DNA from: a virus
Lineage: Duplodnaviria; Caudoviricetes
Virus record (IMG/VR): IMGVR_UViG_3300037458_000547
Span: 1,474 to 65,473 of that record
Strand: one strand, 5' to 3'
DNA: 64,000 nt
Notes under the pieces: model-generated
Database searches by the model: none
Seen by the model: the letters and a program-made list of their open reading frames with translations, nothing else
What the model was told of the DNA's origin: nothing
Made by a program: the position numbers and the translations under genes
Shown here: positions 12,604 to 34,245 of the stretch, piece by piece
Layout: every line of letters starts with the position of its first letter
Numbering within the stretch: the first letter of the stretch is position 1

Positions 12604-12655
12604 TTGACGGCTACGCGCTGGGCATGTAGACTCCTTTCGTCAATTCAATGGAGGG
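12604..12655 (+). promoter_or_regulatory. Early promoter, operator and CAATGGAGGG leader
   Basis: TTGACG-17-TAGACT; operator TACGCGC-TGG-GCATGTA at 12612-12628. Confidence 0.8.
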
Positions 12656-17530: not shown

Positions 17531-17712
17531 TGCTAGCGCGAAAGGAAGGCGAGGCGATCATGGTCGGGGACGAGATCCGTATCGTGATCGTCAGCGTGGA
17601 GGGCCGGAACATCAAGGTGGGCGTCGAGGCCCCCAGGGACATTCCGGTCCATCGTGAGGAGGTCTACCGGCGGATTCGCAGCAATGGAAGTGGGACTCGA
17701 GCAGCTGATTGA
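17524..17712 (+). CDS. csrA: Carbon storage regulator CsrA/RsmA-family RNA-binding protein
   Basis: MLMLARKEGEAIMVGDEIRIVIVSVEGRNIKVGVEAPRDIPVHREEVYRRI follows the CsrA pattern throughout. Confidence 0.95.
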   Translation: MLMLARKEGEAIMVGDEIRIVIVSVEGRNIKVGVEAPRDIPVHREEVYRRIRSNGSGTRAAD

Positions 17713-18481
17713 CGCGGCCGCGACCCACGAGGACACGGGGCGCGTCGCGGGGCAGCCGAGGGTGGACAATCCCGCGCTGAGGCGCAAGTCGGTGCCTCCG
17801 GAGCCCGGCGAGCCGGAACTGCTGGGAGAGTCAGCGCCGGTCATGGCCGGCGGGCTGCGCCGTCGCCTCCTACAGCGGGAGAATGCCAGGCAGAGGCGCC
17901 TGCACTTCGCTCGCGTGCTGGTTGCAACCGGCTGGGACGCTGAGAAGGCGCTGCTGGATTCCGGCTATTCGGGTCGGGCAGGCAGCAGGAACATCAGCGA
18001 AGCATGCAGCGTCATGCTGAAGCACCCGGACGTGATCTCCGAGGTCGAGCGTCTGCGCCTGGTCCTCGAGCAGCAGGCGGACGTGGCCACGATCGACCTG
18101 GCCAAGGAGTGGGTCTCGATCGCCTCCTCGGACATCTTCGACTACTTCGACGAGGTCGATGACGGAGATGGCGTCAGGCTGGCCCTGAAGCCCAAGGCCG
18201 AGATCAGCAAGGCGGCCCGCCGCTCGGTGAAGGCCGTCAAGATCCGGCGCAACAAGCGCACCACCAAGGACGGCGATCAGATCGAGACCGAGGACATCGA
18301 GGTGCAGCTCTGGGACAAGCATTCGGCCCTCGACTCCCTGGCGAAGATCCAGGGGCTGTACCAGGACAAGAAGGCGGACGCCATCAATAACCTGGCCTCG
18401 AAGATCGCCGAGCGGACCGAGAAGGCTCGCCGGCGCATGGGGCGGACGTTCGACGCCGGGGCCCTCGAGGGGCCGGGTTGA
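17684..18481 (+). CDS. terS: Terminase small subunit
   Basis: AEKALLDSGYS HTH; ASSDIFDYF; EVQLWDKHSALDSLAKIQGLY; lies upstream of TerL. Confidence 0.8.
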   Translation: MEVGLEQLIDAAATHEDTGRVAGQPRVDNPALRRKSVPPEPGEPELLGESAPVMAGGLRRRLLQRENARQRRLHFARVLVATGWDAEKALLDSGYSGRAGSRNISEACSVMLKHPDVISEVERLRLVLEQQADVATIDLAKEWVSIASSDIFDYFDEVDDGDGVRLALKPKAEISKAARRSVKAVKIRRNKRTTKDGDQIETEDIEVQLWDKHSALDSLAKIQGLYQDKKADAINNLASKIAERTEKARRRMGRTFDAGALEGPG

Positions 18482-20199: not shown

Positions 20200-20525
20200 T
20201 GGATCGGTACGGTGTCCTGGCGCAGGCCGCCCCAGTCGCCACGGTGACGGTCAACCTGTACTGGGTTCCGCGAGGCCAGAAGGTCGAGAACGCCCGCATC
20301 ATCTCCTGCAACCGCAGTGCCGTGCCGGCCGCGGTCCGGATCGCCGTCGCACCGGAGGGCGCCGCCGACTCGCTCGAGCAGTTCATTGCCTATGACAAGG
20401 AGGTCCCATCGTTGGATACTGTGGCCTCCGTTGAGATGGTCCTGGGGGAGCGGAGTGTCGTGAGGGTGACATCGGACACGGGTGACGTTTCGTTCACGCT
20501 TTTCGGGAAAGAACAGACCCTGTGA
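20196..20525 (+). CDS. Small beta-rich putative virion protein
   Basis: Coupled to terL; alternating hydrophobic strands. Confidence 0.6.
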   Translation: MMDRYGVLAQAAPVATVTVNLYWVPRGQKVENARIISCNRSAVPAAVRIAVAPEGAADSLEQFIAYDKEVPSLDTVASVEMVLGERSVVRVTSDTGDVSFTLFGKEQTL

Positions 20526-20536
20526 GGAGTTAAGCA

Positions 20537-20947
20537 ATGGCGATCAAGATGTCATCGACGGTGCGTGATGCCCGCCTGGACGCGATCGAGACGGCGATCG
20601 GCGCGACCGCAGTTCTCAAGATCCGCACGGGCGCCCCGCCCACCAACATCTCGGATGCGGACTCGGGCACGGTGCTGGCCACGCTGACGCTGCCCTCAGA
20701 CTGGATGGCGGCGGCCTCCGGCGGCTCGAAGGCCAAGGCCGGGACCTGGGAAGATGCCTCAGCGGATGCCGCGGGGACCGCGGGCCACTTCCGCATCTAC
20801 GCCTCCAACGGCACCACCCAGCACATGCAGGGCACCATCACCAGTGTCGCCGTCGGCACGGGCGACATGCTGCTCGACAACGACGTGCTGGCCTCCGGGC
20901 AGACCGTGACGGTCACGAGCTTCACGCTCACGGACGGCAATGCATAA
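20537..20947 (+). CDS. Putative virion structural protein, paralog A
   Basis: RDARLDAI...FRIY.S.GTT...VGTGD...TDGNA; paralog of 35832-36236. Confidence 0.75.
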   Translation: MAIKMSSTVRDARLDAIETAIGATAVLKIRTGAPPTNISDADSGTVLATLTLPSDWMAAASGGSKAKAGTWEDASADAAGTAGHFRIYASNGTTQHMQGTITSVAVGTGDMLLDNDVLASGQTVTVTSFTLTDGNA

Positions 20948-20973
20948 GTAACCGGTAACGGGCGGCGGCTGCC

Positions 20974-23076
20974 GTGGCCATCAACATCCGCGAGGGTCGC
21001 TGGGGCGTCAGCCGCATCGTGCAGGAGGCGGATGGCGGCTACGCCGTCGCCGCGATGCTGCAGACCCCGCGGCTCGCGGATCAGGTCAGCGCCTACTACC
21101 CGCCCCTACAGGACGGCGTCTACCCAGTCGGGTGGGCGCTGGTTCACCTCGTCGGCAACATCGGCACGCCCGACGCAGACACGCGGCTGCTGCCTGATCG
21201 TCTGACGACGGCGACGGTCGGGGACCTCACGCAGCAGCAGCGGAACACGCTGCGCAACGTCCTCGAGCAAGCCCTCTCCGCCTACAGCTACGTTGACCGC
21301 TACGGCGCCACGATCAACAAGGCGGCGTTTCAGGCGGCGGGCTACTCGCTCTCGACGCCGATCTTCCGGATTCTCCGCGACGTGTACGAGTACCTCGGAC
21401 ACAGCGAGACGCGGCCCGTGCAGGCGGTGCCAGAGTCGCACAACACCGAGTACCTCGACAACTTCTCGACGGACCCGTCGAGCCGGTGGACGGCGGACAG
21501 CGCAACGCTGACGTGGGACAGCGGAAATAGCGAACTCGACAGCTTCCTCACCAGCAACACGCTCTGGCGCTACACCGCAAACGACCCGGGCTCCATCGAG
21601 CATGAGGCGCAGGTTACGCTGCAAAGCCAAGGCACCGCGGGATCTTCAAATCGCACGCCCGGCCCGCTGGTGCGTGGCTCCGCGACGAGCAACGGCTACC
21701 AGATCCACGATAACGGCGACGACGTAATCCCGCTCGCCCGCTGGAATAGCGGGACGCGCACCGCGCTCGCCGCCATCACGGGAAACACCGCCCGTAACCC
21801 CGGAGATTTCCAGACGTTGCGCCTCGCCGCTTCCGGCGCGGCCGGCTCCGCGGTCGTTCTGTCCTATTGGCAGACAGTTCACGGTGCGACCAAGCCGAGC
21901 GATCCAGGGTGGATTGGAGTCGATGAGACACCGGGGTTTACGACGTACTCCGACACCGACGCAACTAACCGGCACGACGATTCTGACGATATTTACTGCG
22001 GAATCGGAGGTAGGTCTGCCGCCTCTGATTCCGACCCGCGCCTGAGCTTCTGGAAGTCGCGGGCGATCAGTGACCGAGGCGGCGGCTCGATCTCGGCCTC
22101 GCTCAGCAAGACGCTGGACACGATCGGGCTCAGCACCTCGATCGAGACGCCGGCCCAGGCCAGCCTGGCGCGGACCCTGGACGGGATCGGGCTCAGCACC
22201 TCGATCGAGACGCCGGCCGTCGCCTCGCTCAGCCGGACCCTGGACGGGATCGGGCTCAGCGCCCAGGGCTCGGTGGGCACGGTCATCAGCGAGGCCACGC
22301 TCAGCCGCACGCTGGACTCCGTCTCGCTCACCACCTCAGTCGAGACACCCGCCAGGGCGACGCTCGCCGGGACGCTGGGCAGCGTTGGACTCACCACCTC
22401 AGTCGAGACCCCGGCTCGAGCCGCCCTGGGCGCCACCCTGGGCGGAGTCACCCTCTCAGCCACGGGCTCCATCGGTCAGCTCGTCAGCGAAGCCTCGCTC
22501 AGTCAGACGCTGGCCTCGATCTCGCTGACGGCGGCCGCGGACACGCCGGCAAAGGGGTCGCTCACCTCCTCGCTGTCGAGCGTCAGTCTGGCGGCCGCGG
22601 TCGACACGCCCGCGAAGGCGACGCTCGCCAGGACGCTCGATGGGGTTGGGCTTGCCGCCACGGGCGTTGTCGGTGGGGTCTCGGAGGCCACGCTCGCCGC
22701 CACGCTGGCCGGCTTGACCCTGGCGGCCGCCGTCGATACGCCCGCTCGGGCATCACTGGCGAGAACACTCGACGGCATCGGGCTGAGCGCGGCCGGAGAG
22801 GTCACCGGTCTGGCGGACATTCAGGCGTCGCTGGCGAAGACGCTGGATGCCGCGACACTGGTCTCTGCCGGCACGATCCGGGTCGCGGCGACGCTGGCCC
22901 GCAGCCTGGACTCCATCGGGCTCAGCGCGACGGCGACGCTCGGAGGGGCAATCGCCAGCGCCGCGATCACGCTGGAGGACGCGAGCCTGTTCGGCCGCGG
23001 CAAGGTCTATGCGGCCGGGACGCCCGGGGTTTCCGGGACGGTCGGCCGCATCCACATGACCGCCTTCATGAGTTGA
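20974..23076 (+). CDS. Fibre/adhesin-like protein: lectin-like beta domain plus Ala/Ser/Thr tandem repeats
   Basis: N-terminal W/G/S/T-rich beta domain; C-terminal repeats of about 20 aa (ASL.RTLDGIGLS..ETP). Confidence 0.65.
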   Translation: MAINIREGRWGVSRIVQEADGGYAVAAMLQTPRLADQVSAYYPPLQDGVYPVGWALVHLVGNIGTPDADTRLLPDRLTTATVGDLTQQQRNTLRNVLEQALSAYSYVDRYGATINKAAFQAAGYSLSTPIFRILRDVYEYLGHSETRPVQAVPESHNTEYLDNFSTDPSSRWTADSATLTWDSGNSELDSFLTSNTLWRYTANDPGSIEHEAQVTLQSQGTAGSSNRTPGPLVRGSATSNGYQIHDNGDDVIPLARWNSGTRTALAAITGNTARNPGDFQTLRLAASGAAGSAVVLSYWQTVHGATKPSDPGWIGVDETPGFTTYSDTDATNRHDDSDDIYCGIGGRSAASDSDPRLSFWKSRAISDRGGGSISASLSKTLDTIGLSTSIETPAQASLARTLDGIGLSTSIETPAVASLSRTLDGIGLSAQGSVGTVISEATLSRTLDSVSLTTSVETPARATLAGTLGSVGLTTSVETPARAALGATLGGVTLSATGSIGQLVSEASLSQTLASISLTAAADTPAKGSLTSSLSSVSLAAAVDTPAKATLARTLDGVGLAATGVVGGVSEATLAATLAGLTLAAAVDTPARASLARTLDGIGLSAAGEVTGLADIQASLAKTLDAATLVSAGTIRVAATLARSLDSIGLSATATLGGAIASAAITLEDASLFGRGKVYAAGTPGVSGTVGRIHMTAFMS
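22080..22960 (+). repeat. Coding tandem repeats (ASLSRTLDGIGLS/TSIETPA units)
   Basis: Recurrent GACGGGATCGGGCTCAGC and ACCTCGATCGAGACGCCGGC strings, in frame. Confidence 0.85.
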
Positions 23077-23130
23077 CCGGTACGCGCAGGGCGCGTAGAC
23101 TGTAACCGTCACCAGCTCATCAACGGAGGG
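23073..23130 (+). promoter_or_regulatory. Early promoter, perfect operator palindrome and leader
   Basis: TTGACC-17-TAGACT; TACGCGC-AGG-GCGCGTA at 23081-23097; CAACGGAGGG at 23121. Confidence 0.85.
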
Positions 23131-23136
23131 ACCATC

Positions 23137-23541
23137 ATGCAGCTCAACGTCACACTCGAGATTCCCGAGACCCATCTGTGCGACCTGCTCACCACCGCAT
23201 GGGAGGGCGGCTCGGACCACTGGACGCCGGCCTACGACGCGAGGTCGGTGCGCCGCAAAGAGCCCGTCGAGGGCGAGATCCTGCGCGAGCTGGACGTGAT
23301 CCGGATCGTCTACCAGACGCCGGACGGGAACGACGAGTTCAACGAGCCCGTGCAGACGAACGAGGTCGGCCCGGAGCAGATTGCGGCCGCCATCGGCGCC
23401 GTCATGAATGGCGCGGTCGAGGTCGGGGACCATATCCGCAAGGACATCGAGAACAACATCAACGAGGTCGGCGCCTGCGACGCGGACACCGCGGACGTGC
23501 TGCTGCAGGTCGCCACCTTCGGCAGCATCATCTATGGTTAG
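23137..23541 (+). CDS. Hypothetical acidic protein
   Basis: First gene after a promoter cassette. Confidence 0.75.
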   Translation: MQLNVTLEIPETHLCDLLTTAWEGGSDHWTPAYDARSVRRKEPVEGEILRELDVIRIVYQTPDGNDEFNEPVQTNEVGPEQIAAAIGAVMNGAVEVGDHIRKDIENNINEVGACDADTADVLLQVATFGSIIYG

Positions 23542-23872
23542 TCGGCGCCAGGTGCTGATGGGGGCCCTGCTCCTTCCTGCGGCTCGATTCCTCGGGCCCT
23601 GTCCATCGAGTCCTCCGGTATGGGCGGCCGGGCTCGACACCGGAGAGGTGAAGCTGTGGGGTCAGCTCCTCGTCGGAAATGAGCCGTGGGGCTCGCCTTT
23701 TGCGCTCGTCGCGGAGCCGGCGACCGAGGGCAGGATCGCGATCAGTTGTCCGGAGAGGATCGAGCTGGAGGCCGCTCCCTGCGGCGGAATGCTCGCCATC
23801 GAGGTGCATGGGGCGCACGGGTTCATCGGGAGGTTCCCCGTCGCGAACCACATCGTCGAGGCGAGCGTCTAG
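23534..23872 (+). CDS. Hypothetical protein with a twin-arginine-like N-terminus
   Basis: MVSRRQVLMGALLLPAA. Confidence 0.5.
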   Translation: MVSRRQVLMGALLLPAARFLGPCPSSPPVWAAGLDTGEVKLWGQLLVGNEPWGSPFALVAEPATEGRIAISCPERIELEAAPCGGMLAIEVHGAHGFIGRFPVANHIVEASV

Positions 23873-23877
23873 TGGTC

Positions 23878-24063
23878 ATGCGGGTCTTTGTGACGCGCCT
23901 GTTCCACTGCCCGGAGTGCGACTCAATCTACGATCTCCCGGTGCCAGAGGGCGACCAGCAGGACGTACACCGGATTTGCAGTCGCTGCTGGCGCCGGTTC
24001 TACGCTGAGTCGGATCGCGACAGCCCCTCTGGGCCTGTTGACGAGTACCCGCTCAGCGAGTAG
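23878..24063 (+). CDS. Small Zn-ribbon protein
   Basis: CPEC...CSRC. Confidence 0.55.
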   Translation: MRVFVTRLFHCPECDSIYDLPVPEGDQQDVHRICSRCWRRFYAESDRDSPSGPVDEYPLSE

Positions 24064-24091
24064 ACTGTAACCGTCACCAAACAATGGAGGG
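24038..24091 (+). promoter_or_regulatory. Early promoter, operator and leader
   Basis: TTGACG-17-TAGACT; TACCCGC-TCA-GCGAGTA at 24046-24062; TAGACTGTAACCGTCACCA identical to the 23096 cassette. Confidence 0.85.
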
Positions 24092-24099
24092 AATGCAAG

Positions 24100-24480
24100 G
24101 TGTACGTCTCCAAAGATGAACGCGAGTTCGAGCTTCAGGTGTTCGACGGCAAGGAATACCGGGCGATCTCCGTGGGCCGGCGGGACGATCTCGAACAAAG
24201 TCTCTACGCGATGGTCGGCAAGGTCCGGCGCCTCGTGGTGCCCGGTAAGCACCCGGCCCGGCCGAAATACCGCAGGCCGGCCCGCTACACCGGCCCGGGG
24301 GCGAGCAAGGACGCTGCGATCCTCGGTTACCTCCAGTGGGCGAAGGCCGCCGGACTGACGCAGGTCCACGCCTACGAGGGGCAGCAACTCCCGGACTTCG
24401 GCATTCAGTACCGGCGCGTGCAGGTCGGCGACTTCCTCGGCCCGGTGACGGAGGACGCGCCCGAGGTCGCCGAGGCATGA
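24100..24480 (+). CDS. Hypothetical protein
   Basis: GTG start after CAATGGAGGG. Confidence 0.65.
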   Translation: MYVSKDEREFELQVFDGKEYRAISVGRRDDLEQSLYAMVGKVRRLVVPGKHPARPKYRRPARYTGPGASKDAAILGYLQWAKAAGLTQVHAYEGQQLPDFGIQYRRVQVGDFLGPVTEDAPEVAEA

Positions 24481-24632
24481 GGACAGCCAAGCTCCCCTGT
24501 GGATGCGTCCACGAACTCGAGCGCGAGAGGTGGGCGCATCTGTGCCCTGCTCACCAGCAGGAATTCACCGAGACCCACCAGAGGTGGGCTGAAGAACACA
24601 AGGAGGCCCGACGTGAGAACCACCGTCAGTGA
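24477..24632 (+). CDS. Small Cys/His protein
   Basis: PCGC...LCPAH; ATGA coupling. Confidence 0.55.
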   Translation: MRTAKLPCGCVHELERERWAHLCPAHQQEFTETHQRWAEEHKEARRENHRQ

Positions 24633-24930
24633 GCTGAAGCTGAAGCTGTGTCACCGGACGCTGGCCAATGACACCTTCGAGACCTGCGAGGGCCCGAGGT
24701 GCATGGCATGGAGGTGGGGCCGGATGCCCGAGAACCGCCGCATGAGCAACTACAGTCAGCGGCGGGCGACCACTGAGCCCGAGCGCCCGGCCTACGTCCC
24801 GGCGTCGTTCATCTTTGTGCCCTTCGACGAGGTGGACGGCACGCACGCGCACTGGCTGGAAACCGACGAGGAGGCGGAGGCGCGGCGCACCGGCTACTGC
24901 GGCCTCGCTGGAGTGCCTGAGCATGCCTGA
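24613..24930 (+). CDS. Hypothetical Cys-containing protein
   Basis: SD AGGAGG; CEGPRCMAWRW...GYCGLAG. Confidence 0.6.
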   Translation: MRTTVSELKLKLCHRTLANDTFETCEGPRCMAWRWGRMPENRRMSNYSQRRATTEPERPAYVPASFIFVPFDEVDGTHAHWLETDEEAEARRTGYCGLAGVPEHA

Positions 24931-25231
24931 TCTCACCACCGAAACTCGACGCATCTGCAAGGGCAACACCTTCTGGCAGAAACGAGTCGCCGGCTCGCAG
25001 GGCGACACCTACACGGTCCTGTGGGGGCCGACTCCAGGTGGACCGTACCAGTACGGCTGGCACTGCGACTGCAAGGGATTCCAGTTCCGTCAGTCCTGCA
25101 AGCACGTTGCCGCTGCTGAGCTGGAACGCTGCACCGCGGGCGAGGACGCCTTCGCCGGCGGCCCGGGGCTCGACTCCGAGACCTGCCCGAAGTGCGGCGG
25201 CGAGACCACCATCATCCAAATCACCACCTGA
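24923..25231 (+). CDS. SWIM zinc-finger protein
   Basis: YTV...WHCDCKGFQFRQSCKHV plus C-terminal CPKCGG. Confidence 0.8.
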   Translation: MPDLTTETRRICKGNTFWQKRVAGSQGDTYTVLWGPTPGGPYQYGWHCDCKGFQFRQSCKHVAAAELERCTAGEDAFAGGPGLDSETCPKCGGETTIIQITT

Positions 25232-25240
25232 GGAGGGGTC

Positions 25241-25984
25241 ATGAAAGAGCAATGGACGGTCGAGTATCGAGATTGGATCGGGCGGAGCAAGCAGGGCTAC
25301 ATGGTGCGCCGCCTGAGGAAGGGCCGCGGCAAGTGGCGCTACCGGTTCGACAAGGTGCCGGAACACGTCAAGACCTTCCTGCACCTCAAGCCCGTCCCGG
25401 TGCGAGGCACCTCGAACATGGTGCTGTCCAGCATCCGCTCGGAGGCCAAACTGCACGAGTGCCGGGTCACCTTCCCGGCGCGGGCCCGGGATCGGTTCCT
25501 GTGCGAGATCGAGTCGCCTCCTCACGAGAGGGGTTACCGGGCCTTCTCGCCGCGCACCCTTGCTCACCTGTTCCACTGGGCGGACAGCCCGGCCGAACTC
25601 TACCGGCTCGCCTACAAGTACACCGATTGCGGCCCGGCCATCGGGTTCAAGCTGGAGGGCAAGGCGCCCATCTACTGCGACTCGCTGCGTGAGCTGGGGA
25701 CGTGGGCGGAGATGACCGGCCGCGGCGAGCGGGTCGAGTACCTGACCGTGAGCAGCATCGTCGAGGGCGTGGACACCGAGACCGAAACCGTCGAGGTCCC
25801 GTGTGAGCCGCTCGACACCCTCGTTTCCCGATGGGGGGAGGCTATCGAGGAAGTGAACCGGCAGGCCAAAGACATCTGGAACGAGACTCACGGCTGCGAG
25901 AAGTGCGGGCCCGAGAGTGAGTGTGGCTATCGCGTCATCAATCCCAAGTGCCGCGCCTGCAAGGGGCGTGGAGTCATCCTGTGA
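25241..25984 (+). CDS. Hypothetical protein with a C-terminal Zn finger
   Basis: SD GAGGAGG; CEKC...CRACKG. Confidence 0.7.
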   Translation: MKEQWTVEYRDWIGRSKQGYMVRRLRKGRGKWRYRFDKVPEHVKTFLHLKPVPVRGTSNMVLSSIRSEAKLHECRVTFPARARDRFLCEIESPPHERGYRAFSPRTLAHLFHWADSPAELYRLAYKYTDCGPAIGFKLEGKAPIYCDSLRELGTWAEMTGRGERVEYLTVSSIVEGVDTETETVEVPCEPLDTLVSRWGEAIEEVNRQAKDIWNETHGCEKCGPESECGYRVINPKCRACKGRGVIL

Positions 25985-26001
25985 TCCCCGATAGGCGGGT
26001 A
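25985..26001. promoter_or_regulatory. Operator-like palindrome
   Basis: TCCCCGA-TAG-GCGGGTA, intergenic. Confidence 0.55.
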
Positions 26002-26104
26002 TCCCCTCAGCGGGTGCGGCGGGATGAGGCGGGCGCCTCGCCGCTGCTGATTTATGCGGTGATTCTGCTGGTAATCGCATTGCTCGGCCTCGCGTTGTGA
26101 GGGC

Positions 26105-26155
26105 TTGCATTCTCACGCGCCGCGAGTAGACTGGAGGCGTGGCAACAACGGAGGG
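26105..26155 (+). promoter_or_regulatory. Early promoter, degenerate operator and leader
   Basis: TTGCAT-16-TAGACT; right half-site GCGAGTA; CAACGGAGGG at 26146. Confidence 0.7.
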
Positions 26156-26158
26156 ACC

Positions 26159-26443
26159 ATGACCAAGAAACCGCCGACAGTGACACTCTGGTATTTCGAG
26201 TTCTGCACGAATGGACTCGGCGTGTGGGACCGAATGTGGGCCGCCTCACGCTCGGAGCTGGCCAAAGAGCGCCAGTGGCTGAAAGACATCAACAGCAAGC
26301 TGGACGACAAGATGACTCCAGGCGACGAGCTGGACGGATCACAGGGGCAGCACGGCCCGGCGCGGTCGGTCAAGGTGGAGCTGACTGCCGAGGGCGTCCT
26401 CCACTTCGCCCAGAACTTCGCGGTTGATCAGGGGAGCTGCTGA
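26159..26443 (+). CDS. Hypothetical protein
   Basis: ATG after CAACGGAGGGACC. Confidence 0.7.
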   Translation: MTKKPPTVTLWYFEFCTNGLGVWDRMWAASRSELAKERQWLKDINSKLDDKMTPGDELDGSQGQHGPARSVKVELTAEGVLHFAQNFAVDQGSC

Positions 26444-26754
26444 TGCCATTCCCCACTGGAGACCTGAGGGGCCGGGTGGAAAAGCTGGAATCCCGGAATG
26501 AAGAATTGGCCCGCGTCCTGCGCGAGGTGTCCGCCGTCATCGACGCAATGCAGGCGCCCGCGGAGATCGACGAGGCATTCCCCGAGGACCCCGACGAGGA
26601 TCGCGCCAGCATCAACGACCAGCATTGCTTCGGCACGTTCAGGAGCTGGGGGCTCACCAACATCGACGGCGCCGACAACGCCCGCCCGGTGGTGATCGAG
26701 TGGCCGGACCTGAGCTGGGCCCGCGACCAGATTACGAAGGTGCTGGCGTCATGA
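26443..26754 (+). CDS. Hypothetical protein
   Basis: TGATG coupling. Confidence 0.6.
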   Translation: MPFPTGDLRGRVEKLESRNEELARVLREVSAVIDAMQAPAEIDEAFPEDPDEDRASINDQHCFGTFRSWGLTNIDGADNARPVVIEWPDLSWARDQITKVLAS

Positions 26755-26933
26755 GCCGCAGGCCCGACATCATGCTGACCCTGCCCGCCCTGCTCGGGCA
26801 TGCCGACCAGCAGGCCGAGGACCGGCTCACCTCTAAGCGTGAGGACGCCTGCCAGTGGATGCGCGAGCGGGGAATCGAGGTCCTCAGCGACCCGCTGCCG
26901 CCGGAGCGGTTCGGGCGGGAGGCGCGGCCATGA
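26751..26933 (+). CDS. Hypothetical protein
   Basis: ATGA coupling. Confidence 0.55.
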   Translation: MSRRPDIMLTLPALLGHADQQAEDRLTSKREDACQWMRERGIEVLSDPLPPERFGREARP

Positions 26934-27211
26934 TCGAGCTGACGTGGCACGCCATCGACGCCGAGGGGGAGGAGGAGTGCGGGGCTTTCGAGGTCCCGGA
27001 GTCCTGCACGCTCGCTGAGCTGGTCGAGGCGGCGCTAGCTGACCTTGAGGAACGCTCCGGGTCCTTCAATGACTACATGGGCGAGCCGGTCGGGTTGCGG
27101 ATTGAGTTCCCGTGCGCCGCTCGCGGCCTGTGGCTGGATGTTTCCGCGCACTTGACATCCCCGCAGGGCGGGGAGCAAGCTAACACCGTCCCAACTCAGA
27201 ACGGAGGTTGA
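26930..27211 (+). CDS. Hypothetical acidic protein
   Basis: SD GGGAGG; ATGA coupling. Confidence 0.55.
   Translation: MIELTWHAIDAEGEEECGAFEVPESCTLAELVEAALADLEERSGSFNDYMGEPVGLRIEFPCAARGLWLDVSAHLTSPQGGEQANTVPTQNGG
27152..27207 (+). promoter_or_regulatory. Promoter, perfect operator palindrome and variant leader
   Basis: TTGACA at 27152; TCCCCGC-AGG-GCGGGGA at 27158-27174; AACGGAGG leader. The -10 is weak. Confidence 0.65.
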
Positions 27212-27213
27212 AA

Positions 27214-27567
27214 ATGGGTGACAGAGTGTTGTTCCAAGTGATCAAGGCGGCAGAGGATTCGGTCGAGTTCTCCCCCGTCATCTACGGCCACAACGCGGGT
27301 GACGCGGCGCCGACCATCGTGGCCCAGCTCGCCATTCAGATGCGCGACCGCATGGGGGATGTGAGCTACTGGGCGGCGCGGCTGGTCGAGGTCCTGTGCC
27401 AGACTGACCCGGGCGGATGCCTCAGCATCGGCATCTGGAACGCAGATGCAATCCTGACCGCGAAGGACTCGCACGGGGACGCCGGGGTGGTCCTCATCAA
27501 CGCCGACAACGGCGCCGCGATGTACCTCGGCGGTTACTACAATGCCGATGGCCGGGAGGTCGAATGA
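27214..27567 (+). CDS. Hypothetical protein
   Basis: SD GGAGG before ATG. Confidence 0.7.
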   Translation: MGDRVLFQVIKAAEDSVEFSPVIYGHNAGDAAPTIVAQLAIQMRDRMGDVSYWAARLVEVLCQTDPGGCLSIGIWNADAILTAKDSHGDAGVVLINADNGAAMYLGGYYNADGREVE

Positions 27568-28019
27568 CCCTCACCATCCGCAACGTGTCCGAGTCCGAGC
27601 GGCTGGAGTTCTTCCCGCGTCACTTTGGCCCGATGGCGATGATGACCGTCGAGGCCCGCGTCTTTCACTACGCGAGGCAGTCCCTGCGCGATGAGCGCAC
27701 CGGTGAGCCGGCCTACGCCGGGGGCGTGTGGGAGTTCTCCGAAGCCAGCAACGGCGCCGGTTGGATGTGGCCCCGATCGGTCCCGGAGCGGGTGGACCTC
27801 GGGCCGGTCGGGGAGCTGGGCGGGGATGTCCGGGGACTCTCCCGGGTGGCCGCCGGCCTCGCGCTGACGTGCATCGCGGTGAACCATGAGCTGTGGCGCC
27901 TGCACGAGGAGCAAGGCGACTGCGCCGCCACGCGCAAGCTGGACGAGCAGTGGCGGCTGTTGATGGAGGCCGCGAGCGAGTGCGATGAGGCAGGGAAGAT
28001 ACTGGAATGGCTCGATTGA
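27564..28019 (+). CDS. KlcA/ArdB-family antirestriction protein
   Basis: [11 protein letters not shown]; Y.GG.WEF...NGAGWMWP; LS..AAGL; terminal A..I..WLD. Confidence 0.8.
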
Positions 28020-28040
28020 GCCTCAGCACAAGCCGCAACG

Positions 28041-28070
28041 GAGGGCGCCCATTCGGGCGCCCTCTTGCTA
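28041..28070 (+). terminator. Perfect 10-bp hairpin, probable intrinsic terminator
   Basis: GAGGGCGCCC-ATTC-GGGCGCCCTC followed by TTGCTATT. Confidence 0.65.
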
Positions 28071-28128
28071 TTGCGCCCCTACCCGCGGGGCGCGTAGCAT
28101 ACAAGCGTGGATGGTCCACAATGGAGGG
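28071..28128 (+). promoter_or_regulatory. Promoter, operator and leader
   Basis: TTGCGC-18-TAGCAT; TACCCGC-GGG-GCGCGTA at 28080-28096; CAATGGAGGG at 28119. Confidence 0.7.
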
Positions 28129-28135
28129 TAGATCA

Positions 28136-28621
28136 ATGCAGCGACAGTTATTCACAAAGGTCGGGCGCCGCTACAAGCCGGCCCCGGCGGAAACCGTGTG
28201 CGAAGCGGCGGCGGCGTATCTGGCCGCGCCCCTGATGCGCGGGCCCGCAATCGTCAACCCCCGGGTTACCCGGGAATATCTGCGCACCCTGCTGGGGATG
28301 CGCGAGCGGGAAGGCTTCGCGGTGGTGTTCCTCGACAACCGGCACCGGGTCATTGCGACTGAGGTGATGTTCGAGGGGACCATTGACGGCGCCAGCGTTC
28401 ACCCGCGGGAAGTGGTCAAAGCGGCTCTCAGGCAAAACGCCGCGGCGATCATCCTCGCCCACAATCACCCGAGCGGGAATCCCGAGCCCAGTGCGGCCGA
28501 CGAGCTGATTACCCAGCGGCTCCGGGATGCGCTGGCACTGGTGGACATCCGGGTACTGGATCATCTGATTGTGGCCCCGGGCGGCTTTGCCGTGTCCTTT
28601 GCCGAGCGGGGGCTGATATGA
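28136..28621 (+). CDS. radC: RadC-like JAB/MPN domain protein
   Basis: [11 protein letters not shown]...[15 protein letters not shown]...[15 protein letters not shown]...LDHLIV. Confidence 0.95.
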
Positions 28622-28851
28622 GCCACTATGACCCCCTGTATGAGGCAATCGAGCGGGGCGATGAGGACTGCTCTCACGCCTTCGCGCACCCGGGCGGGAA
28701 CTCGGCGCTCCGGGCCGCCAGTCGCCGCAATCCCCGCAACCTGCCCTGTCCGACGTGCGGCGAGCCCAATCGCCTGACACCGGCGGACCGCGCCCGCGGG
28801 TATCAGTGCGATGCGTGCGCGGACCGGGCCGAACGTGGATGGGACTACTGA
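28618..28851 (+). CDS. Small Zn-finger protein
   Basis: CPTC...YQCDAC. Confidence 0.7.
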
Positions 28852-29279
28852 TGCTGCGCACCCGGGAACTGGCGGACCTGCTGCGCAGGAACTGGGGACG
28901 GCACCGCCCCTACACCCGGAAGCAACTGATCGAGGTGCTGACCGAGGATGCCCGCCGGCGGCTGCCGCGGATTGATCGGCTGATCAATGAGCGGGCCCAG
29001 TGGCGGGCGCACATTGACGCCAACACCGAGGGCGGGCGCGTGGCTCTCTGCCGCTCCGGGATGGATTGCGACTGCGTGACGTACACCGACGCCCGGGTGA
29101 TCCCGGCGCCGGTGTCGGTCGTGGCGTGGCTCCGGGAGTTCGACCAGCACTGCGAGTGGCTGGACGGCCCGGAATCGACATGGTTCGACAAGCCGAGCCG
29201 GGTCACCGAGGGCCACGAGTCGCGGGATTTAGTCCTGGAGGCGTATGAGGACGGGCATCCGCACGTCATTCACCTGTAA
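28851..29279 (+). CDS. Hypothetical protein
   Basis: TGATG coupling; GMDCDC motif. Confidence 0.65.
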   Translation: MLRTRELADLLRRNWGRHRPYTRKQLIEVLTEDARRRLPRIDRLINERAQWRAHIDANTEGGRVALCRSGMDCDCVTYTDARVIPAPVSVVAWLREFDQHCEWLDGPESTWFDKPSRVTEGHESRDLVLEAYEDGHPHVIHL

Positions 29280-29297
29280 CAACGGAGGGACCAACAG

Positions 29298-29543
29298 ATG
29301 ACACTCATGAAAGCCCTCGACCTGTGCAGGGCGCTCCGCGCTCAGGGACTCCGCCCCCGCAGCTACTCAGGGCGCGGGATGTACGGGAAGGAGTGTGTCG
29401 GGGCCAGCCTCGACAGCGACAGCGACCTCGATACCGAGGGCCTACCTCGGGCAACGTGGGACAGCTTGGGGAAAGGGGTGATCGCCTATTGGCCTGCCGT
29501 GAAGTGGACCCGCGAGTGCGAGCGGATCTACCCGGAGGAATGA
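29298..29543 (+). CDS. Hypothetical protein
   Basis: CAACGGAGGG leader; RSYSGRGMYGKECVG...WDSLGKGVIAYWP. Confidence 0.75.
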   Translation: MTLMKALDLCRALRAQGLRPRSYSGRGMYGKECVGASLDSDSDLDTEGLPRATWDSLGKGVIAYWPAVKWTRECERIYPEE

Positions 29544-29668
29544 TGGAAGCCTTCGCATGGCTGGTCATCCTGACCGTATGGGTCTCCCTGCTCTGGATAG
29601 GCGGAGTGATCGGGGAGTGGATGCTGCACCGCAACAAGAAAGATCCGGGAGGAAATCCGGAGGGGTGA
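29543..29668 (+). CDS. 41-aa single-TM peptide
   Basis: TGATG coupling; MEAFAWLVILTVWVSLLWIGGVIG. Confidence 0.55.
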   Translation: MEAFAWLVILTVWVSLLWIGGVIGEWMLHRNKKDPGGNPEG

Positions 29669-29675
29669 GGTAAGG

Positions 29676-29835
29676 GGAGGTTAAGGACGGTAGGGCCAGC
29701 ATTAAGCTGGTCTTATCGTTTGGGGAGGAGGGACAAGGGATAGGACAGGGACAGCGAGGGACGCGGGGGATGCGGGATGCGTGCAGGACGTAGGGTCTGC
29801 CCGGATGGATTCCCGGGAGCCGGGGGAACTGCGGA
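29676..29835 (+). ncRNA. GGA-dense, G-rich non-coding segment (Csr/Rsm sponge or G-quadruplex candidate)
   Basis: 17 GGA in 160 nt by hand count, six as ANGGA; seven GGG tracts in 29722-29776. Confidence 0.35.
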
Positions 29836-29929
29836 CTATGCTTAGCCGACTGGTATTGACAACTGCCTAATAGTGGAGGACGCTACAGGTGAGGGCCAAT
29901 CCCGGCTCTCACAACGGAGGGTGAGAAGC

Positions 29930-30112
29930 ATGAGAACCGAGAAAGTCCGCTGCCCTATCTGCCGCGGGACTGGTAACCGTGGCCACGGCTTGTGGAACAT
30001 CCTGACGCAGTGCGTCGTGTGCGCCGGCACGGGCAAGGTGGAAGTCCACGCCCGCCGGGAGTCGCGCCGCGACCTCTGGCGCGAGTTCTGCCGCGAGGAG
30101 GCACGACGATGA
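29930..30112 (+). CDS. DnaJ-type zinc-finger miniprotein
   Basis: CPICRGTG...CVVCAGTGK; CAACGGAGGG leader at 29912. Confidence 0.7.
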   Translation: MRTEKVRCPICRGTGNRGHGLWNILTQCVVCAGTGKVEVHARRESRRDLWREFCREEARR

Positions 30113-30426
30113 CCCGCCGCGCTACCCTGCTCGATACCCCCTGCCTCGTGACCCTGACCCGCTACGGGGCCAATGGCGGCCGGAACGTCGCCATCCTGCT
30201 GACGGTGGACGATGAGACCCGCGAGCCCTATGACACCGTGACGACGTGGATACCGGGTTTGGCTGCCGATGAGGTAGCCATACGGGACGATGAGATCCCG
30301 GGCCGGGCCGAGTCCATGATCAAGGCCGAACTGATCTTTCCTCAGGTCCTGAGGCGAGCCCTGTCCGGCTGGATCACGATCCCTGTCTATCGGCTGGTGC
30401 CCGGCGTGGCGGAGGCGGCCAAGTGA
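30109..30426 (+). CDS. Hypothetical protein
   Basis: ATGA coupling. Confidence 0.65.
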   Translation: MTRRATLLDTPCLVTLTRYGANGGRNVAILLTVDDETREPYDTVTTWIPGLAADEVAIRDDEIPGRAESMIKAELIFPQVLRRALSGWITIPVYRLVPGVAEAAK

Positions 30427-30602
30427 GCCGCCCGGATGATGAGAAGGACGCGGCGCGTTACCGCAAGCTCTGCGCCCTTCCCTATCCTGAGGCGGCGCGG
30501 ATCATGCAGTACCTGAAACCGGACTGTGACGCCATGCTGGACAGGTACATTGAGCAATTCGGGCCAGAGCCGGCGGACAAGGCGGCGGAGAAAGTCAAGT
30601 GA
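30423..30602 (+). CDS. Hypothetical 59-aa protein
   Basis: GTGA coupling at both ends (MSRPDDEKDAARYRKL...). Confidence 0.55.
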   Translation: MSRPDDEKDAARYRKLCALPYPEAARIMQYLKPDCDAMLDRYIEQFGPEPADKAAEKVK

Positions 30603-30877
30603 GCCGCGTGCCCTGCCCGAGGTGTCACGGGGAGTGGTACAGGGATCTTGAGCCCGGGACCGGCCTGCCTTACGCCTGCTACCGGTGCGGGAACACGGGC
30701 GAGGTCAATGCTCCTCACGGTGCCTGCCCGGGATGCGGCGAGGCGCTGCTGGAGGGCGAGGGCGAGGCGCTCGGGGGGATCTGCTACGACTGCACCGAGG
30801 ACGCGAAGGGACGCGCCCAGTGGCTCGGAGCGTATGAGGGCGGAGGCCCGACGCTGAGGGGCCAGACAGAGAGGTAG
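30599..30877 (+). CDS. Multi-CxxC zinc-binding protein
   Basis: CPRC, CYRC, CPGC, CYDC. Confidence 0.65.
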   Translation: MSRVPCPRCHGEWYRDLEPGTGLPYACYRCGNTGEVNAPHGACPGCGEALLEGEGEALGGICYDCTEDAKGRAQWLGAYEGGGPTLRGQTER

Positions 30878-30888
30878 AGAGGCGAGGC

Positions 30889-30920
30889 GAGGCCCGGGGG
30901 TCGCAAGGCTCCCGGGCCTC
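30889..30920. terminator. 14-bp hairpin with a GCAA tetraloop
   Basis: GAGGCCCGGG-GGTC-GCAA-GGCT-CCCGGGCCTC; no clear U tract. Confidence 0.5.
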
Positions 30921-31132
30921 ATGCTGTCCGGAAGGAGCGCAGGGGGCGCAGGATCGCAGGGGACCCCCCGAGGGACCGGCGCTCCGCAGCCCGACCCGCG
31001 AGGCGGCCCGGCCCGAAAGGAAATGATCGCGGGGCTTGGCCCTGCTCTACGGGTTCACCCCTCTCTCCTACCCCCCTCCTGGCTTTCCCGCCGGGCCATT
31101 TTTTTTGGGGGAGCATTTTTCCCCAGGACCCC

Positions 31133-31177
31133 TTGACCTCTCCCCGCTGTGCGGGTAGTCTCCTGGTCATGGAGGTG
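31133..31177 (+). promoter_or_regulatory. Promoter and operator
   Basis: TTGACC-17-TAGTCT; TCCCCGC-TGT-GCGGGTA at 31141-31157; SD ATGGAGGT. Confidence 0.8.
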
Positions 31178-31182
31178 ACGCC

Positions 31183-31305
31183 ATGAAACGACCGGATTGG
31201 GTGGTAGATCTGTGGGAAGTGACGCTGGTCCTGGCAGTGCTGCTGTTCGGGTTCTGGCTGATGCAGGGCGGTGGCTACATCCCCGGCTTCGGGAGGGTGG
31301 AATGA
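31183..31305 (+). CDS. 40-aa single-TM peptide
   Basis: MKRPDWVVDLWEVTLVLAVLLFGFWLMQGGG...; strong SD. Confidence 0.6.
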   Translation: MKRPDWVVDLWEVTLVLAVLLFGFWLMQGGGYIPGFGRVE

Positions 31306-31658
31306 AGCCCTGTCCGTGGTGCGGGAGCCGCGAAGGCGAGGTCTTGCAGCCGCCCGGATCGACGTTCCGCTGGCGGGCCTGGGTGTGCGGCTGCGGGGTG
31401 GTGGGCCCCGAGATCCGGATCCAGACCCTGGGCGAGGGGACGAAGGAGGAGTGGGAGGCGCGGGCCCGGCAGGCGGCCATGGCGGCCTGGAACGACCGCA
31501 GGGACGATGCCGAGAAGCTGCGCGACGTGCTGAGGCGGTTCCTGGAGCTGCCGGTGCGGGTCCGGAGCCAGGGCGGCTACATCCGTCTCGACGAGACGCA
31601 GGATGAGCTGCGGCTGTGGGCCGAGGCCATGGAGCTGCTCAAGGGAGGGGCGCCATGA
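31302..31658 (+). CDS. Lar-like (restriction alleviation) Zn-ribbon protein
   Basis: MKPCPWCG...WVCGCGVVGP...A..AWNDR. Confidence 0.6.
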   Translation: MKPCPWCGSREGEVLQPPGSTFRWRAWVCGCGVVGPEIRIQTLGEGTKEEWEARARQAAMAAWNDRRDDAEKLRDVLRRFLELPVRVRSQGGYIRLDETQDELRLWAEAMELLKGGAP

Positions 31659-31855
31659 CTGACCGGATCGAGATCTACCGGACGAGCAGCCAGGTCCCGT
31701 TCGCCAGCGTCGCGTCGTCCTTTCAGCCGCAGAAAGGCGATCTTGTCTACGTCCTGGGTGCGACCTGGAAGGTGGTCGGACTGTCGTTCGCGATCGACGA
31801 CCTCGGCGACCGGGCGCGGATGCGCTGCAACCTGATCGTGAGGAAGGCGCGATGA
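31655..31855 (+). CDS. Hypothetical protein
   Basis: SD GGAGGG; ATGA coupling. Confidence 0.6.
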   Translation: MTDRIEIYRTSSQVPFASVASSFQPQKGDLVYVLGATWKVVGLSFAIDDLGDRARMRCNLIVRKAR

Positions 31856-32028
31856 TCGTCCGCTACGGGGACCTGCACGACGACGAGAAGCATCGCGGCA
31901 AGATCCTGCTGTTCATCCGCGGCCGGTGGGACCCGGATGCCGAACTGGGTCGACTCGAGGAGCTGCTCTCGCTGCGGGCCGCGATCGACCAGTTCCTGTT
32001 CCTGGAGGCGAAACGTGACCGTCCGTGA
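31852..32028 (+). CDS. Hypothetical 58-aa protein
   Basis: ATGA coupling (MIVRYGDLHDD...). Confidence 0.5.
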   Translation: MIVRYGDLHDDEKHRGKILLFIRGRWDPDAELGRLEELLSLRAAIDQFLFLEAKRDRP

Positions 32029-32242
32029 CCCCCCGCCGGATCTCGAGCTGCGGCTCGCCCGGCAGAAGGGCGAGGACTTCGAGTGGGCCTTCAACCGGTT
32101 CATGGACCTGCTCCTGGAGGAGGTCGAGGAGGCGAACTTCGACGACCGGACCCGCGATCGGGTGCGGCTGGCGATCCTTGGCGCGGCCGAGCGGCTGTAC
32201 GGCGAGCATCGCGATCGGCAGGACCAGGGGAAGGCGCCATGA
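32015..32242 (+). CDS. Hypothetical protein
   Basis: SD GGAGG before GTG. Confidence 0.55.
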   Translation: MTVRDPPPDLELRLARQKGEDFEWAFNRFMDLLLEEVEEANFDDRTRDRVRLAILGAAERLYGEHRDRQDQGKAP

Positions 32243-32499
32243 GTGACCTGGAACAGCGGATCGCGGCGCTGCCGGAGTGGCCGGACCCGGATGAGCCAAT
32301 GTTCAAGCAGGAACGACTCGCGTGGTCTAGTGACGCCGCCCTCGCCCGCCTCGCGCTGGCGCTGGAGTGGATCAATACCCGCGTTCCTCACCTAGAGGGA
32401 TGCCCGTGGCGCGGACTGACCCGCGATGCTCAGGGGCTGCTACCTGACTGTCGCTGCGGCCGTGACGCCATGCTCGCCGCGTTGGAGGTGCCGAAGTGA
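32239..32499 (+). CDS. Hypothetical protein ending LAALEVPK
   Basis: ATGA coupling; ends in the junction repeat. Confidence 0.6.
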   Translation: MSDLEQRIAALPEWPDPDEPMFKQERLAWSSDAALARLALALEWINTRVPHLEGCPWRGLTRDAQGLLPDCRCGRDAMLAALEVPK

Positions 32500-32717
32500 A
32501 CAACTGGCAATACAGCGACGCGACTGATGAGATCATTTGCGAAATCTGCGGCGGCAAGCAAGGCGTCGGGATACGCCGGGTGATGTTCGACGGTTTCTGC
32601 TGCAAGCATTGCCTGTATGTCTGGTATGAGGGCGCTGGCGTTGACTCGGACGCGGTGAGAGCCGCCTCACTGAAACGTCAGGAGTCCTTGCTCGCCGCGT
32701 TGGAGGTGCCGAAGTGA
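32496..32717 (+). CDS. Small Cys-rich protein ending LAALEVPK
   Basis: CEICGG...FCCKHC; GTGA start inside the repeat. Confidence 0.6.
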   Translation: MNNWQYSDATDEIICEICGGKQGVGIRRVMFDGFCCKHCLYVWYEGAGVDSDAVRAASLKRQESLLAALEVPK

Positions 32718-33049
32718 GCAATACCCCGAGGACCGACGCATTCTGGTTTGAGCGTAACCGGCGTCCTTCTGACGCGGCATGGCTCAGATACGCACGCACG
32801 CTAGAGCGCGAGCTGGCTGAGAAAAACGATCTAATTACGGGACTGCCGACGATTTGCCGCCGTTATGAGGCGCAGATAGATGGCCTGCGCCGCGAGCTGG
32901 CCGAGGCGCGGTTAGACGGAGAGTGCTATCACAGCTTGTGCGGGCTTATCAGAGCCAACCCAAACGCGCTCGCTGGTGAGCTGTTGGAATGGTTCAAGGG
33001 TGAATCCGCCATCGACGCGGCTATGGTTGCCGAGGAGGTGCCGAAGTGA
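32714..33049 (+). CDS. Hypothetical protein ending EEVPK
   Basis: MSNTPRTDA start; coiled-coil segment. Confidence 0.6.
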   Translation: MSNTPRTDAFWFERNRRPSDAAWLRYARTLERELAEKNDLITGLPTICRRYEAQIDGLRRELAEARLDGECYHSLCGLIRANPNALAGELLEWFKGESAIDAAMVAEEVPK

Positions 33050-33243
33050 GCGCCACGTATTCTCGTGACTACAGGGCGGTATTTCATATGTGCAATTGCG
33101 TCGGGCCGCAAAAGGGCCGACCGCTTTGCCCATGCCGTATGGCTCACGTCATCGTGCGAAACGGCCGCTACATCGAACCCGAGCGCGATCTTGGGCCGGC
33201 GATACCAGATGACCTTCCGAAGCTGGAGGTGCCCCGTGGATGA
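33046..33243 (+). CDS. Small Cys-rich protein ending LEVPRG
   Basis: CNCVGP...PLCPCRM. Confidence 0.6.
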   Translation: MSATYSRDYRAVFHMCNCVGPQKGRPLCPCRMAHVIVRNGRYIEPERDLGPAIPDDLPKLEVPRG

Positions 33244-33895
33244 CTACACCGTGACTTGCGCACGATGCGGGCATGACTTGCCCGTGTCTAAGGCGGCAGC
33301 CGAGGAAGGCGACGAGTGGGAATGCCTGCCGTGCAACAAGATGCACCACGAACTCGACCGCCTGCTCCGCGAACTGGCCGAGGAGCGGACCATGATACTC
33401 AACTACCAGCTTGAGGGTCGCGACGGGAGCGGGATCGACCGCCTAAGCCGCGAGAACACCAGCCTGCGCGAGCAGCTGGCTGCCGCCCAGTCGAAAGAGG
33501 TCTGCACGGTCGCGCACACCGAGGAGTCGCTCGAGTTCTGCCAGGCGTGCAAGATCGAGCAATTGCGCAAAGAGGCCGACGAGGACGCCCTGTTGCGCCA
33601 GCGCATGAGGCGCATCCTGCGGCGGACCGCCGACGCGCTGCACGGCGGCTCCCTGGAGGACGGGTACTGGTCGTGGCACGACCTGCCGGAGATTGCAGAG
33701 CGCCTGCGCCGCGAAGGGAATGAGGCCGCCGAGCGCGAGGCGCTGCTGAAGACCCGGTTGGCAGACGCCCAGGAGAAGATGGCCCGCGTCCTGCGCGACG
33801 GCATCCAGAAGGCCCCCTGCCCGACCCCGAAGCAGTGGAAGCAGATGCAGGACTTCGCGACCGGCTGGCTGGCCGTCGTCGAGAGCGAGCGATGA
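33236..33895 (+). CDS. Zn-finger plus coiled-coil protein
   Basis: CARC...CLPC, CQAC; GTG after GGAGGT. Confidence 0.6.
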   Translation: MDDYTVTCARCGHDLPVSKAAAEEGDEWECLPCNKMHHELDRLLRELAEERTMILNYQLEGRDGSGIDRLSRENTSLREQLAAAQSKEVCTVAHTEESLEFCQACKIEQLRKEADEDALLRQRMRRILRRTADALHGGSLEDGYWSWHDLPEIAERLRREGNEAAEREALLKTRLADAQEKMARVLRDGIQKAPCPTPKQWKQMQDFATGWLAVVESER

Positions 33896-34245
33896 GCGAC
33901 GCGATCGACCGCGCCGCGGCCGCCCTCGGGGCGAGGGTCCACCAGCGCCAGCTCGAGGTCGAGAGCGCCCTGGCGAGGCACTGTCCGGAGTTCCCTCTCG
34001 CCCTGCTGCGCCAGGCGTTCGGGGCCCGCCTGGAGTCGGTGCGGACGCCGGACATCGACTACGGGCCCGATCCGCCGGCGGCAGTGCCCCTGTCGGAGCC
34101 CTGGGTGCGCCCCAAGCCGCCGAAGGGCGACTACCCGGTGGTGGTGGCGCAGATGAGCCCGGAAAAACGCAGATTCCTGCGCCGCAAACGGTTGCCGCGT
34201 GTACGCAGAGCGGGTATGATGAGAGACTATGGACACCACGAATAA
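33892..34245 (+). CDS. Hypothetical protein
   Basis: ATGA coupling; the 3' end overlaps the HTH promoter. Confidence 0.5.
   Translation: MSDAIDRAAAALGARVHQRQLEVESALARHCPEFPLALLRQAFGARLESVRTPDIDYGPDPPAAVPLSEPWVRPKPPKGDYPVVVAQMSPEKRRFLRRKRLPRVRRAGMMRDYGHHE
34192..34220 (+). promoter_or_regulatory. Promoter of the HTH gene with a degenerate operator
   Basis: TTGCCG-17-TATGAT; right half-site GCGGGTA at 34210-34216. Confidence 0.65.

Follow-up and report, generated by a model that had tools for sequence, protein, structure and literature searches.

In the early region of an uncultured phage that encodes its own CsrA, a non-coding spacer between two gene cassettes carries an exceptional concentration of GGA triplets, all on the sense strand. 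Our preferred, though tentative, explanation is that this tract is transcribed and may serve in cis as a CsrA landing pad or decoy embedded within an mRNA. Ranked just behind it, and nearly as likely, is that the tract is a G-rich simple repeat. The tract is not a free-standing small-RNA gene of the CsrB/Rsm type, which a sequence-only reading of the same DNA had put forward alongside a G-quadruplex. The strand bias, a hairpin that depends on G·U pairs, an excess of GGA that is not confined to the repeats, and a csrA gene in the genome suggest a function that is exerted at the RNA level and is specific to GGA, for which CsrA binding is the obvious candidate.

The DNA that was analysed (the window, 64 kb) covers positions 1474-65473 of a 65,473-nt IMG/VR virus record. 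It has a G+C content of 66%, and nearly all of its called genes lie on the + strand. A giant ORF occupies its left edge, and genes for RecT and a YqaJ-type recombinase, the portal, the major capsid protein and tail proteins were recognised elsewhere in it. There was no DNA similarity to GenBank phages, and the matches of the CsrA and capsid proteins were scattered over taxa and gave no usable host. Three landmarks outside the spacer matter for what follows:

17524-17712, + strand: csrA, 62 aa (PF02599, 77 bits, E 7.5e-23)
directly 3' of csrA: small terminase subunit gene (Terminase_2 match), followed by terL
20.2-34.2 kb: accessory block of small genes, including those for an ArdA-like protein and RadC

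The csrA gene lies 12 kb upstream of the GGA tract, and its product is intact, with L2, L4, R6 and the VHREE motif kept, which bears out the earlier claim that the phage has a csrA of its own. At 17524-18478, csrA stands ahead of terS and terL at the early-to-packaging junction. The csrA leader has one GGA in its Shine-Dalgarno sequence and another that runs over the start codon (AAGGAUG), in apparent resemblance to autoregulated csrA genes.

The tract itself sits in a 261-nt gap (29669-29929) within a one-directional array of early, anti-defence genes. Eight of the ten proteins encoded around it are 40-105 aa long, the two larger ones being the ArdA-like protein and RadC, and in profile searches these neighbours match ArdA, RadC, zinc-ribbon families or nothing. 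Promoters of the phage follow the format TTGAC-N17-TAGACT (at 12604, 23073, 24038 and 31133), and the leader CAAYGGAGGG is common to eight of its genes. The remaining cassette boundaries consist of stop codon, hairpin, promoter and leader with no insert, so the tract amounts to approximately 130 nt of extra sequence between a hairpin and a decayed promoter. Read 5' to 3', the spacer is made up of a stop codon, a 15-bp hairpin, GGGAY-type repeats, a non-repetitive GGA-rich part, a promoter remnant that has a -35 element only, and the leader of the next gene. Its features, with those of its immediate flanks, are as follows:

29540-29668, + strand: ORF of 42 aa from the ORF listing, single-pass membrane protein, last of the upstream gene block
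29644-29661, + strand: 5-bp hairpin whose 8-nt loop, GAGGAAAU, presents GGA (-6.9 kcal/mol)
29686-29721, + strand: hairpin of 15 bp, four of them G·U, U-rich on its 3' side (-23.1 kcal/mol)
29722-29781, + strand: G-tract core of degenerate GGGAY(N2-3) units
29748-29776, + strand: canonical G-quadruplex motif, four G3+ tracts with loops of 4-7 nt
29782-29835, + strand: non-repetitive GGA-rich part, which includes GCAGGACGU
within 29782-29835, + strand: CCCGG/CCGGG hairpin with a AUGGAUUC loop (-9.6 kcal/mol)
29835-29862, - strand: sigma-70-like promoter match facing the tract (TTGTCA, 16 nt, CATAGT; 9 of 12 positions, a consensus match only)
29856-29861, + strand: TTGACA, a perfect -35 hexamer that lacks an acceptable -10 at a spacing of 16-19 nt
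29872-29886, + strand: within the leader of the next gene, small hairpin whose loop is GAGGA (P(unpaired) 0.98 for the GGA at 29878)
29889-29913, + strand: leader hairpin just 5' of the ribosome-binding site (-16.9 kcal/mol)
29912-29921, + strand: leader and Shine-Dalgarno sequence CAACGGAGGG, containing ACGGA and common to seven other early genes
29930-30112, + strand: 60-aa CxxCxGxG zinc-finger gene, the first 3' of the spacer (weak DnaJ_CXXCXGXG match; phrog_8027)

The 42-aa ORF has an ATGA overlap with an 81-aa gene and a third-position G+C of approximately 76% by our own count, and its final 30 nt already lie inside the GGA-rich zone. By comparison with the four TTGAC-N17-TAGACT promoters, the TTGACA at 29856 is a degenerate copy of the phage promoter cassette. 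Elsewhere in the phage, one further copy of CAACGGAGGG (28036-28064) is no ribosome-binding site but the 5' arm of a hairpin, of 10 bp and rich in G+C, which closes the cassette of the ArdA-like gene.

The intergenic, non-coding status assigned to the tract from the letters alone held up, as stops occur in all three + frames and there is no plausible ORF in the gap 29669-29929, where coding capacity was rejected over six frames. On the minus strand the sole open stretch has no start codon until 29702, and a small internal ATG frame has a low third-position G+C (own count). A tRNA/tmRNA scan returned no match.

The counts that drew attention to this segment were likewise reproduced, i.e., 17 GGA (and one TCC) in 29676-29835, six ANGGA motifs starting at 29683, 29729, 29736, 29747, 29757 and 29805, seven G3+ tracts in 29722-29776, and a purine skew (G74 A34 C28 T24, 67.5% purine). 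No other 160-nt segment of the 64 kb has a higher GGA density (mean 3.68, sd 2.06, max 17), and the sole 120-nt G-over-C skew above 0.45 in the window spans 29576-29840. This excess is no by-product of G-richness, because shuffles that preserve dinucleotides (9.3±1.9 GGA) reached 17 in 0 of 2000 cases; mononucleotide shuffles gave 7.3±2.1. Among G-runs of at least two, 17 of the 22 in the tract are followed by A, compared with 29% across the whole window (binomial P ~4e-6), and the same holds for 6 of 7 in the non-repetitive part at 29782-29835 (P ~0.003). All 17 motifs lie on the sense strand, and nearly every called gene of this genome is on +.

The gap as a whole has 7.7 GGA per 100 nt, against 0-4.3 in the 18 other gaps of the phage. 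When AGGA/ARGGA motifs were counted in the manner of CSRNA_FIND, gap by gap, this gap scored 7 within 60 nt and 8 within 120 nt; the next best reached 4-5, and the mean over the window was 0.84±1.03. The seven that share one 60-nt span have motif positions 29727-29786, which reach just beyond the core. By this count the gap is the outlier of the phage.

Folding of the + strand of the tract gave z = -2.2, whereas the minus-strand fold (z = -0.98) was no better than shuffles. The hairpin at 29686-29721, the one helix that the centroid structure of the tract (160 nt) retains, has -23.1 kcal/mol on + compared with -10.5 on the minus strand. It has an 8-bp core stem followed by UUAUCGUU (5 of 8 U by our own reading), yet the U-rich side takes part in the extended stem and the terminator scan did not flag the hairpin, and we consider it a candidate leaky terminator, processing site or 5' stabiliser. 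Downstream of it, 14 of the 15 GGAs in 29722-29835 have a P(unpaired) of 0.6-0.9, as the tract has little C with which they could pair. Most GGAs are thus predicted to be unpaired, but only about three are found in defined loops, at 29651 (P(unpaired) 0.97), 29775 and 29878.

Kulkarni et al. (2006) gave five defining features of CsrA-sequestering sRNAs (PMC1488887). The tract is intergenic, and its AGGA/ARGGA concentration exceeds that of the other intergenic regions; together with motifs that are dense on one strand and predicted to be mostly unpaired, and a csrA in the same genome, this is what it has in common with CsrB, CsrC, RsmY and RsmZ. Unlike these RNAs, the tract is embedded in an operon. 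It has no promoter-like site on + (consensus scan of 29000-30500), no GacA/UvrY box (TGTAAG-N6-CTTACA) nearby within 3 mismatches, and nothing terminator-like on + between 29835 and 29930, in agreement with the caveat already raised that a dedicated promoter and terminator are absent. The sole terminator-like hairpin on +, at 29686-29721, is 5' of 15 of the 17 motifs, and the tract would therefore be poorly transcribed if termination there were efficient. While the known sponges present one motif per hairpin loop, the motifs of the tract are 3-11 nt apart, a spacing that leaves no room for one CsrA subunit on every motif. An Rfam scan at the gathering threshold gave no match. The top near-miss of a permissive scan over 4227 families was RsmY, whose 15.3 bits (E 0.2) fall far short of the cut-off of 57, with 29693-29715 of the hairpin aligned in place of the RsmY terminator; this resemblance is driven by composition and is not membership. 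Furthermore, CSRNA_FIND discards gaps that are built of repeat units of at least 7 bp (PMC1488887), an exclusion that fits the tract in part. On these grounds, membership of the CsrB/Rsm sponge family is unsupported.

Relatives were sought through the neighbouring 81-aa, 105-aa and 143-aa proteins and TerL, and yielded only single-gene relatives with no synteny; records G001-G003 have one or two genes in common with the phage. The major capsid protein had 175 matches in IMG/VR, of which the best, in record G006, has 79% identity. The structural genes of G006 are syntenic with those of the phage, and its terL is followed directly by a homologue of the gene at 34229; G006 thus does not have the accessory block at 20.2-34.2 kb, and the block, including the tract, is lineage-specific. 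No tract was present in the five records fetched among the capsid relatives, and the conservation that had been proposed as a check was found in none of the relatives compared. The nearest known relative of a flanking gene, P0001 (89% identity), is on a 928-nt JGI contig. The block that is missing from G006 (20200-34230, 14 kb) holds the fibre module and the anti-defence cassettes, and G006 has a stretch of its own, of ~13 kb, between the homologue of 17192-17530 and terL.

Association with csrA was assessed in 32 CsrA-encoding IMG/VR contigs obtained with a single query, and 14 whole records of CsrA phages (759 kb) were read. GGA-dense candidates in these phages were judged by eye, the open-frame filter being uninformative at this G+C. 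None of the 14 records had a comparable non-coding sense-strand tract; the GGA-dense segments in them encode acidic or Gly-rich repeats, apart from a (GGGANT)n array in one record and a GGA-rich gene end in another. The idea of a complete phage-encoded Csr circuit, with sponge and repressor together, is not supported as a rule for CsrA phages, and no general association of such tracts with csrA was seen in these records.

Three stretches met in these comparisons are described here in their own right. The (GGGANT)n array (~29990-30085 of the CsrA-encoding record G021) has tandem GGGAAT/GGGATT and GGGAGT hexamers, is G-quadruplex-prone, and has the csrA of that record on the opposite strand. In a second CsrA-encoding phage (G011, ~67500-67720), there are 14 GGA in 160 nt (ACGGA, AUGGA, AGGGA) in a stretch that spans the end of a zinc-finger gene and the non-coding part that follows, just before a TTGAC site. 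The third stretch is on an unrelated metagenome contig that has only the 81-aa gene family in common with the phage (L038:5240-5470); it is ~220 nt of almost C-free purine with 21 GGA per 160 nt, consists of ACAGGAUGU, GAGGAUGU and (GGGGATAAGGATGGGA)n units followed by repeated CTTACAT, and its motifs fit the CsrA consensus better than those of the phage tract.

The mechanism we favour would work as follows. The tract would be part of an early mRNA that spans several genes, as a non-coding spacer which is poor in C and specific to this lineage. It may have grown by local duplication of short GGGAY-type units, at a site flanked by the closing hairpin of one early cassette and by the leader and decayed promoter of the cassette that follows. 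Transcription would reach it by read-through, probably from a promoter-like site with weak hexamers near 28080. In the + RNA the tract would follow the stable 15-bp hairpin and be largely unpaired, so that about 15 GGA would be exposed, 8 of them of the AGGA/ARGGA class. The putative partner is the phage's own 62-aa CsrA or the CsrA of the host, and any binding of CsrA by the tract is predicted from the motifs. By one option the tract would hold CsrA away from the A(C/U)GGA leaders of the early genes, and by the other it would recruit CsrA to the downstream block at 29930-30877. Against a landing pad count the absence of a transcription unit of its own, the hairpin upstream, the crowded and repeat-like motifs, and the fact that neither conservation nor a general association with csrA was seen in the records compared. 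A wider version is possible but more doubtful, namely that the phage has a self-contained Csr module in which its own CsrA, encoded beside the packaging genes, the early leaders with A(C/U)GGA at the ribosome-binding site and the operon-embedded GGA array would act together. The array would then buffer CsrA and so set the time at which the early, anti-defence genes are shut off.

A point in favour of a landing pad is the leader that follows the tract, whose ACGGA is listed among primary CsrA sites (PMC4066749). The gene at 29930 has the features of a CSRA_TARGET in the same source, i.e., ACGGA in the Shine-Dalgarno zone and at least three sites, with pairs 10-60 nt apart. As in CsrA-repressed leaders such as those of glgC, pgaA and hag (PMC4066749), A(N)GGA lies over the Shine-Dalgarno sequence, and additional sites, including one that a hairpin loop presents, lie 10-60 nt upstream. 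The tract differs from described leaders of this kind in that it has far more motifs, most of which are 100-200 nt upstream of the start codon and behind a large hairpin. The next intergenic region (30878-31182) has a strong hairpin at 30889-30921, then the GGA motifs AAGGA, CAGGA, GGGGA and AGGGA, and after these a canonical terminator with a U8 run (~31080-31106) and the promoter at 31133, a layout that is more sRNA-like or 3'UTR-like than that of the GGA tract.

The explanation that comes almost level with a CsrA landing pad is that the tract is a heptamer-like, G-rich simple-sequence repeat, a product of slippage during replication that no partner recognises by its sequence. Any effects would then be those of G-quadruplexes or R-loops, e.g., pausing or insulating transcription between cassettes. 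Small tandem duplications are present in the core, (GGACAG)x2 and (GGGATGC)x2, and TRF reports periods of 9 and 7 at low score; 9 of 9 G-runs in the core (29722-29781) are followed by A, in units of 5-9 nt. G4Hunter values reach 1.5-1.8 in three adjacent stretches, and in the G4-aware minimum free energy structure the G-tracts at 29722-29750 form a G4. The heptamer repeats of Xanthomonas and Nostoc, GGGAATC and GGGGA(C/T)T, form G-quadruplexes (Rehm et al. 2015, PMC4692102), and the tract resembles these GGGNATC-like repeats in the G3-A start of its units, in having at least four G3 tracts (seven G3+ in 29722-29776), in its non-coding location between co-oriented ORFs 54 nt past the upstream stop codon, and in rapid turnover between relatives. 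It is missing in the relatives of the phage, and another CsrA phage has the (GGGANT)n array.

However, the tract units are GGGAYNN with breaks, irregular in length, and the longest in-phase heptamer run is 3. There is no GGGAATC or GGGGAYT unit and no run of two or more tandem heptamers of the family. The Xanthomonas and Nostoc repeats are a dispersed family, whereas this tract is a single locus, the sole one of its kind in 64 kb, and has extra GGAs outside the repeat, where the excess persists in 6 of 7 G-runs. As for the quadruplex that had been proposed as an alternative, one canonical motif is present on the + strand, at 29748-29776, but this is not distinctive; the window has 14 such motifs, which makes a single one in the tract weak evidence.

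Much less likely than either of these is a DNA-level control region, in which the GGGAY repeats, 75-135 bp upstream of the 29856 promoter, would be sites for a regulator, from the phage or its host, by which this promoter is activated or insulated. The extra ~130 nt lie exactly upstream of this promoter and are absent from the other cassette boundaries, and with a perfect -35 but no -10 the promoter would need help. But the motifs are strictly on one strand, irregularly spaced and free of dyad symmetry, no candidate regulator emerged, and no GGGAY arrays are found upstream of the other promoters of the phage.

We give slightly less weight again to a role in mRNA housekeeping, whereby a C-poor, Shine-Dalgarno-like stretch behind a 5' hairpin would block Rho loading across the lengthy untranslated gap, or would hold 30S subunits and so stabilise or pre-load the downstream message. 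The base composition (G74 vs C28, the sole such skew in the window), three GGAGG copies with no start codons downstream and the stable hairpin on the 5' side are consistent with this. Most of the motifs, however, are GGGAY, which by our own reasoning would pair poorly with the anti-Shine-Dalgarno sequence, and other untranslated gaps of 300-880 nt in the phage have no such bias.

It is quite improbable that the minus strand is the functional one, giving a C-rich antisense RNA of ~190 nt that would run from the promoter-like match at 29862-29835 to 29661-29644, which scores as a terminator-like site when read on that strand. The CCCUCC stretches of such an RNA could pair with GGAGGG leaders. 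These are the sole promoter-like and terminator-like matches in 29000-30500, both are on the minus strand, and they bracket the tract in the right order. Yet they are consensus matches only, the stem is 5 bp with -6.9 kcal/mol, the minus strand does not keep the long hairpin, its fold has z = -0.98, and nearly all called genes are on +.

A VIPR guide-RNA array of alternating GGY/NN pentamers read by a RAMP-like Vipr protein, which the tract recalls in being a phage-borne, purine- and G-rich, gene-free and repeat-like stretch, can be dismissed, as there is no 5-nt period (no lag-5 signal; longest in-phase GGYNN run 2 on + and 1 on minus, compared with the 9-16 tandem YNNGG units of vrRNA arrays, doi 10.64898/2026.04.26.720920), the G-runs end in A and not in a pyrimidine, GGY units are lacking, and no Vipr gene was recognised nearby among neighbours that are 40-105 aa long in eight of ten cases and otherwise the ArdA-like protein and RadC.

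CsrA homologues occur in phage genomes, as the 32 IMG/VR contigs recovered with a single query illustrate, and a limited literature search found neither a virus-encoded Csr decoy nor a decoy embedded in an mRNA as opposed to a free sRNA. Should the tract be no more than a simple repeat rich in G, the lesson would be that GGA density beside a csrA gene is insufficient to call a sponge. If the spacer truly binds CsrA, it would be a phage-borne target or decoy for phage CsrA and an example of a decoy that is embedded in an mRNA instead of being a free sRNA, and it would offer a way into the question of how the phage turns off its early anti-defence genes.
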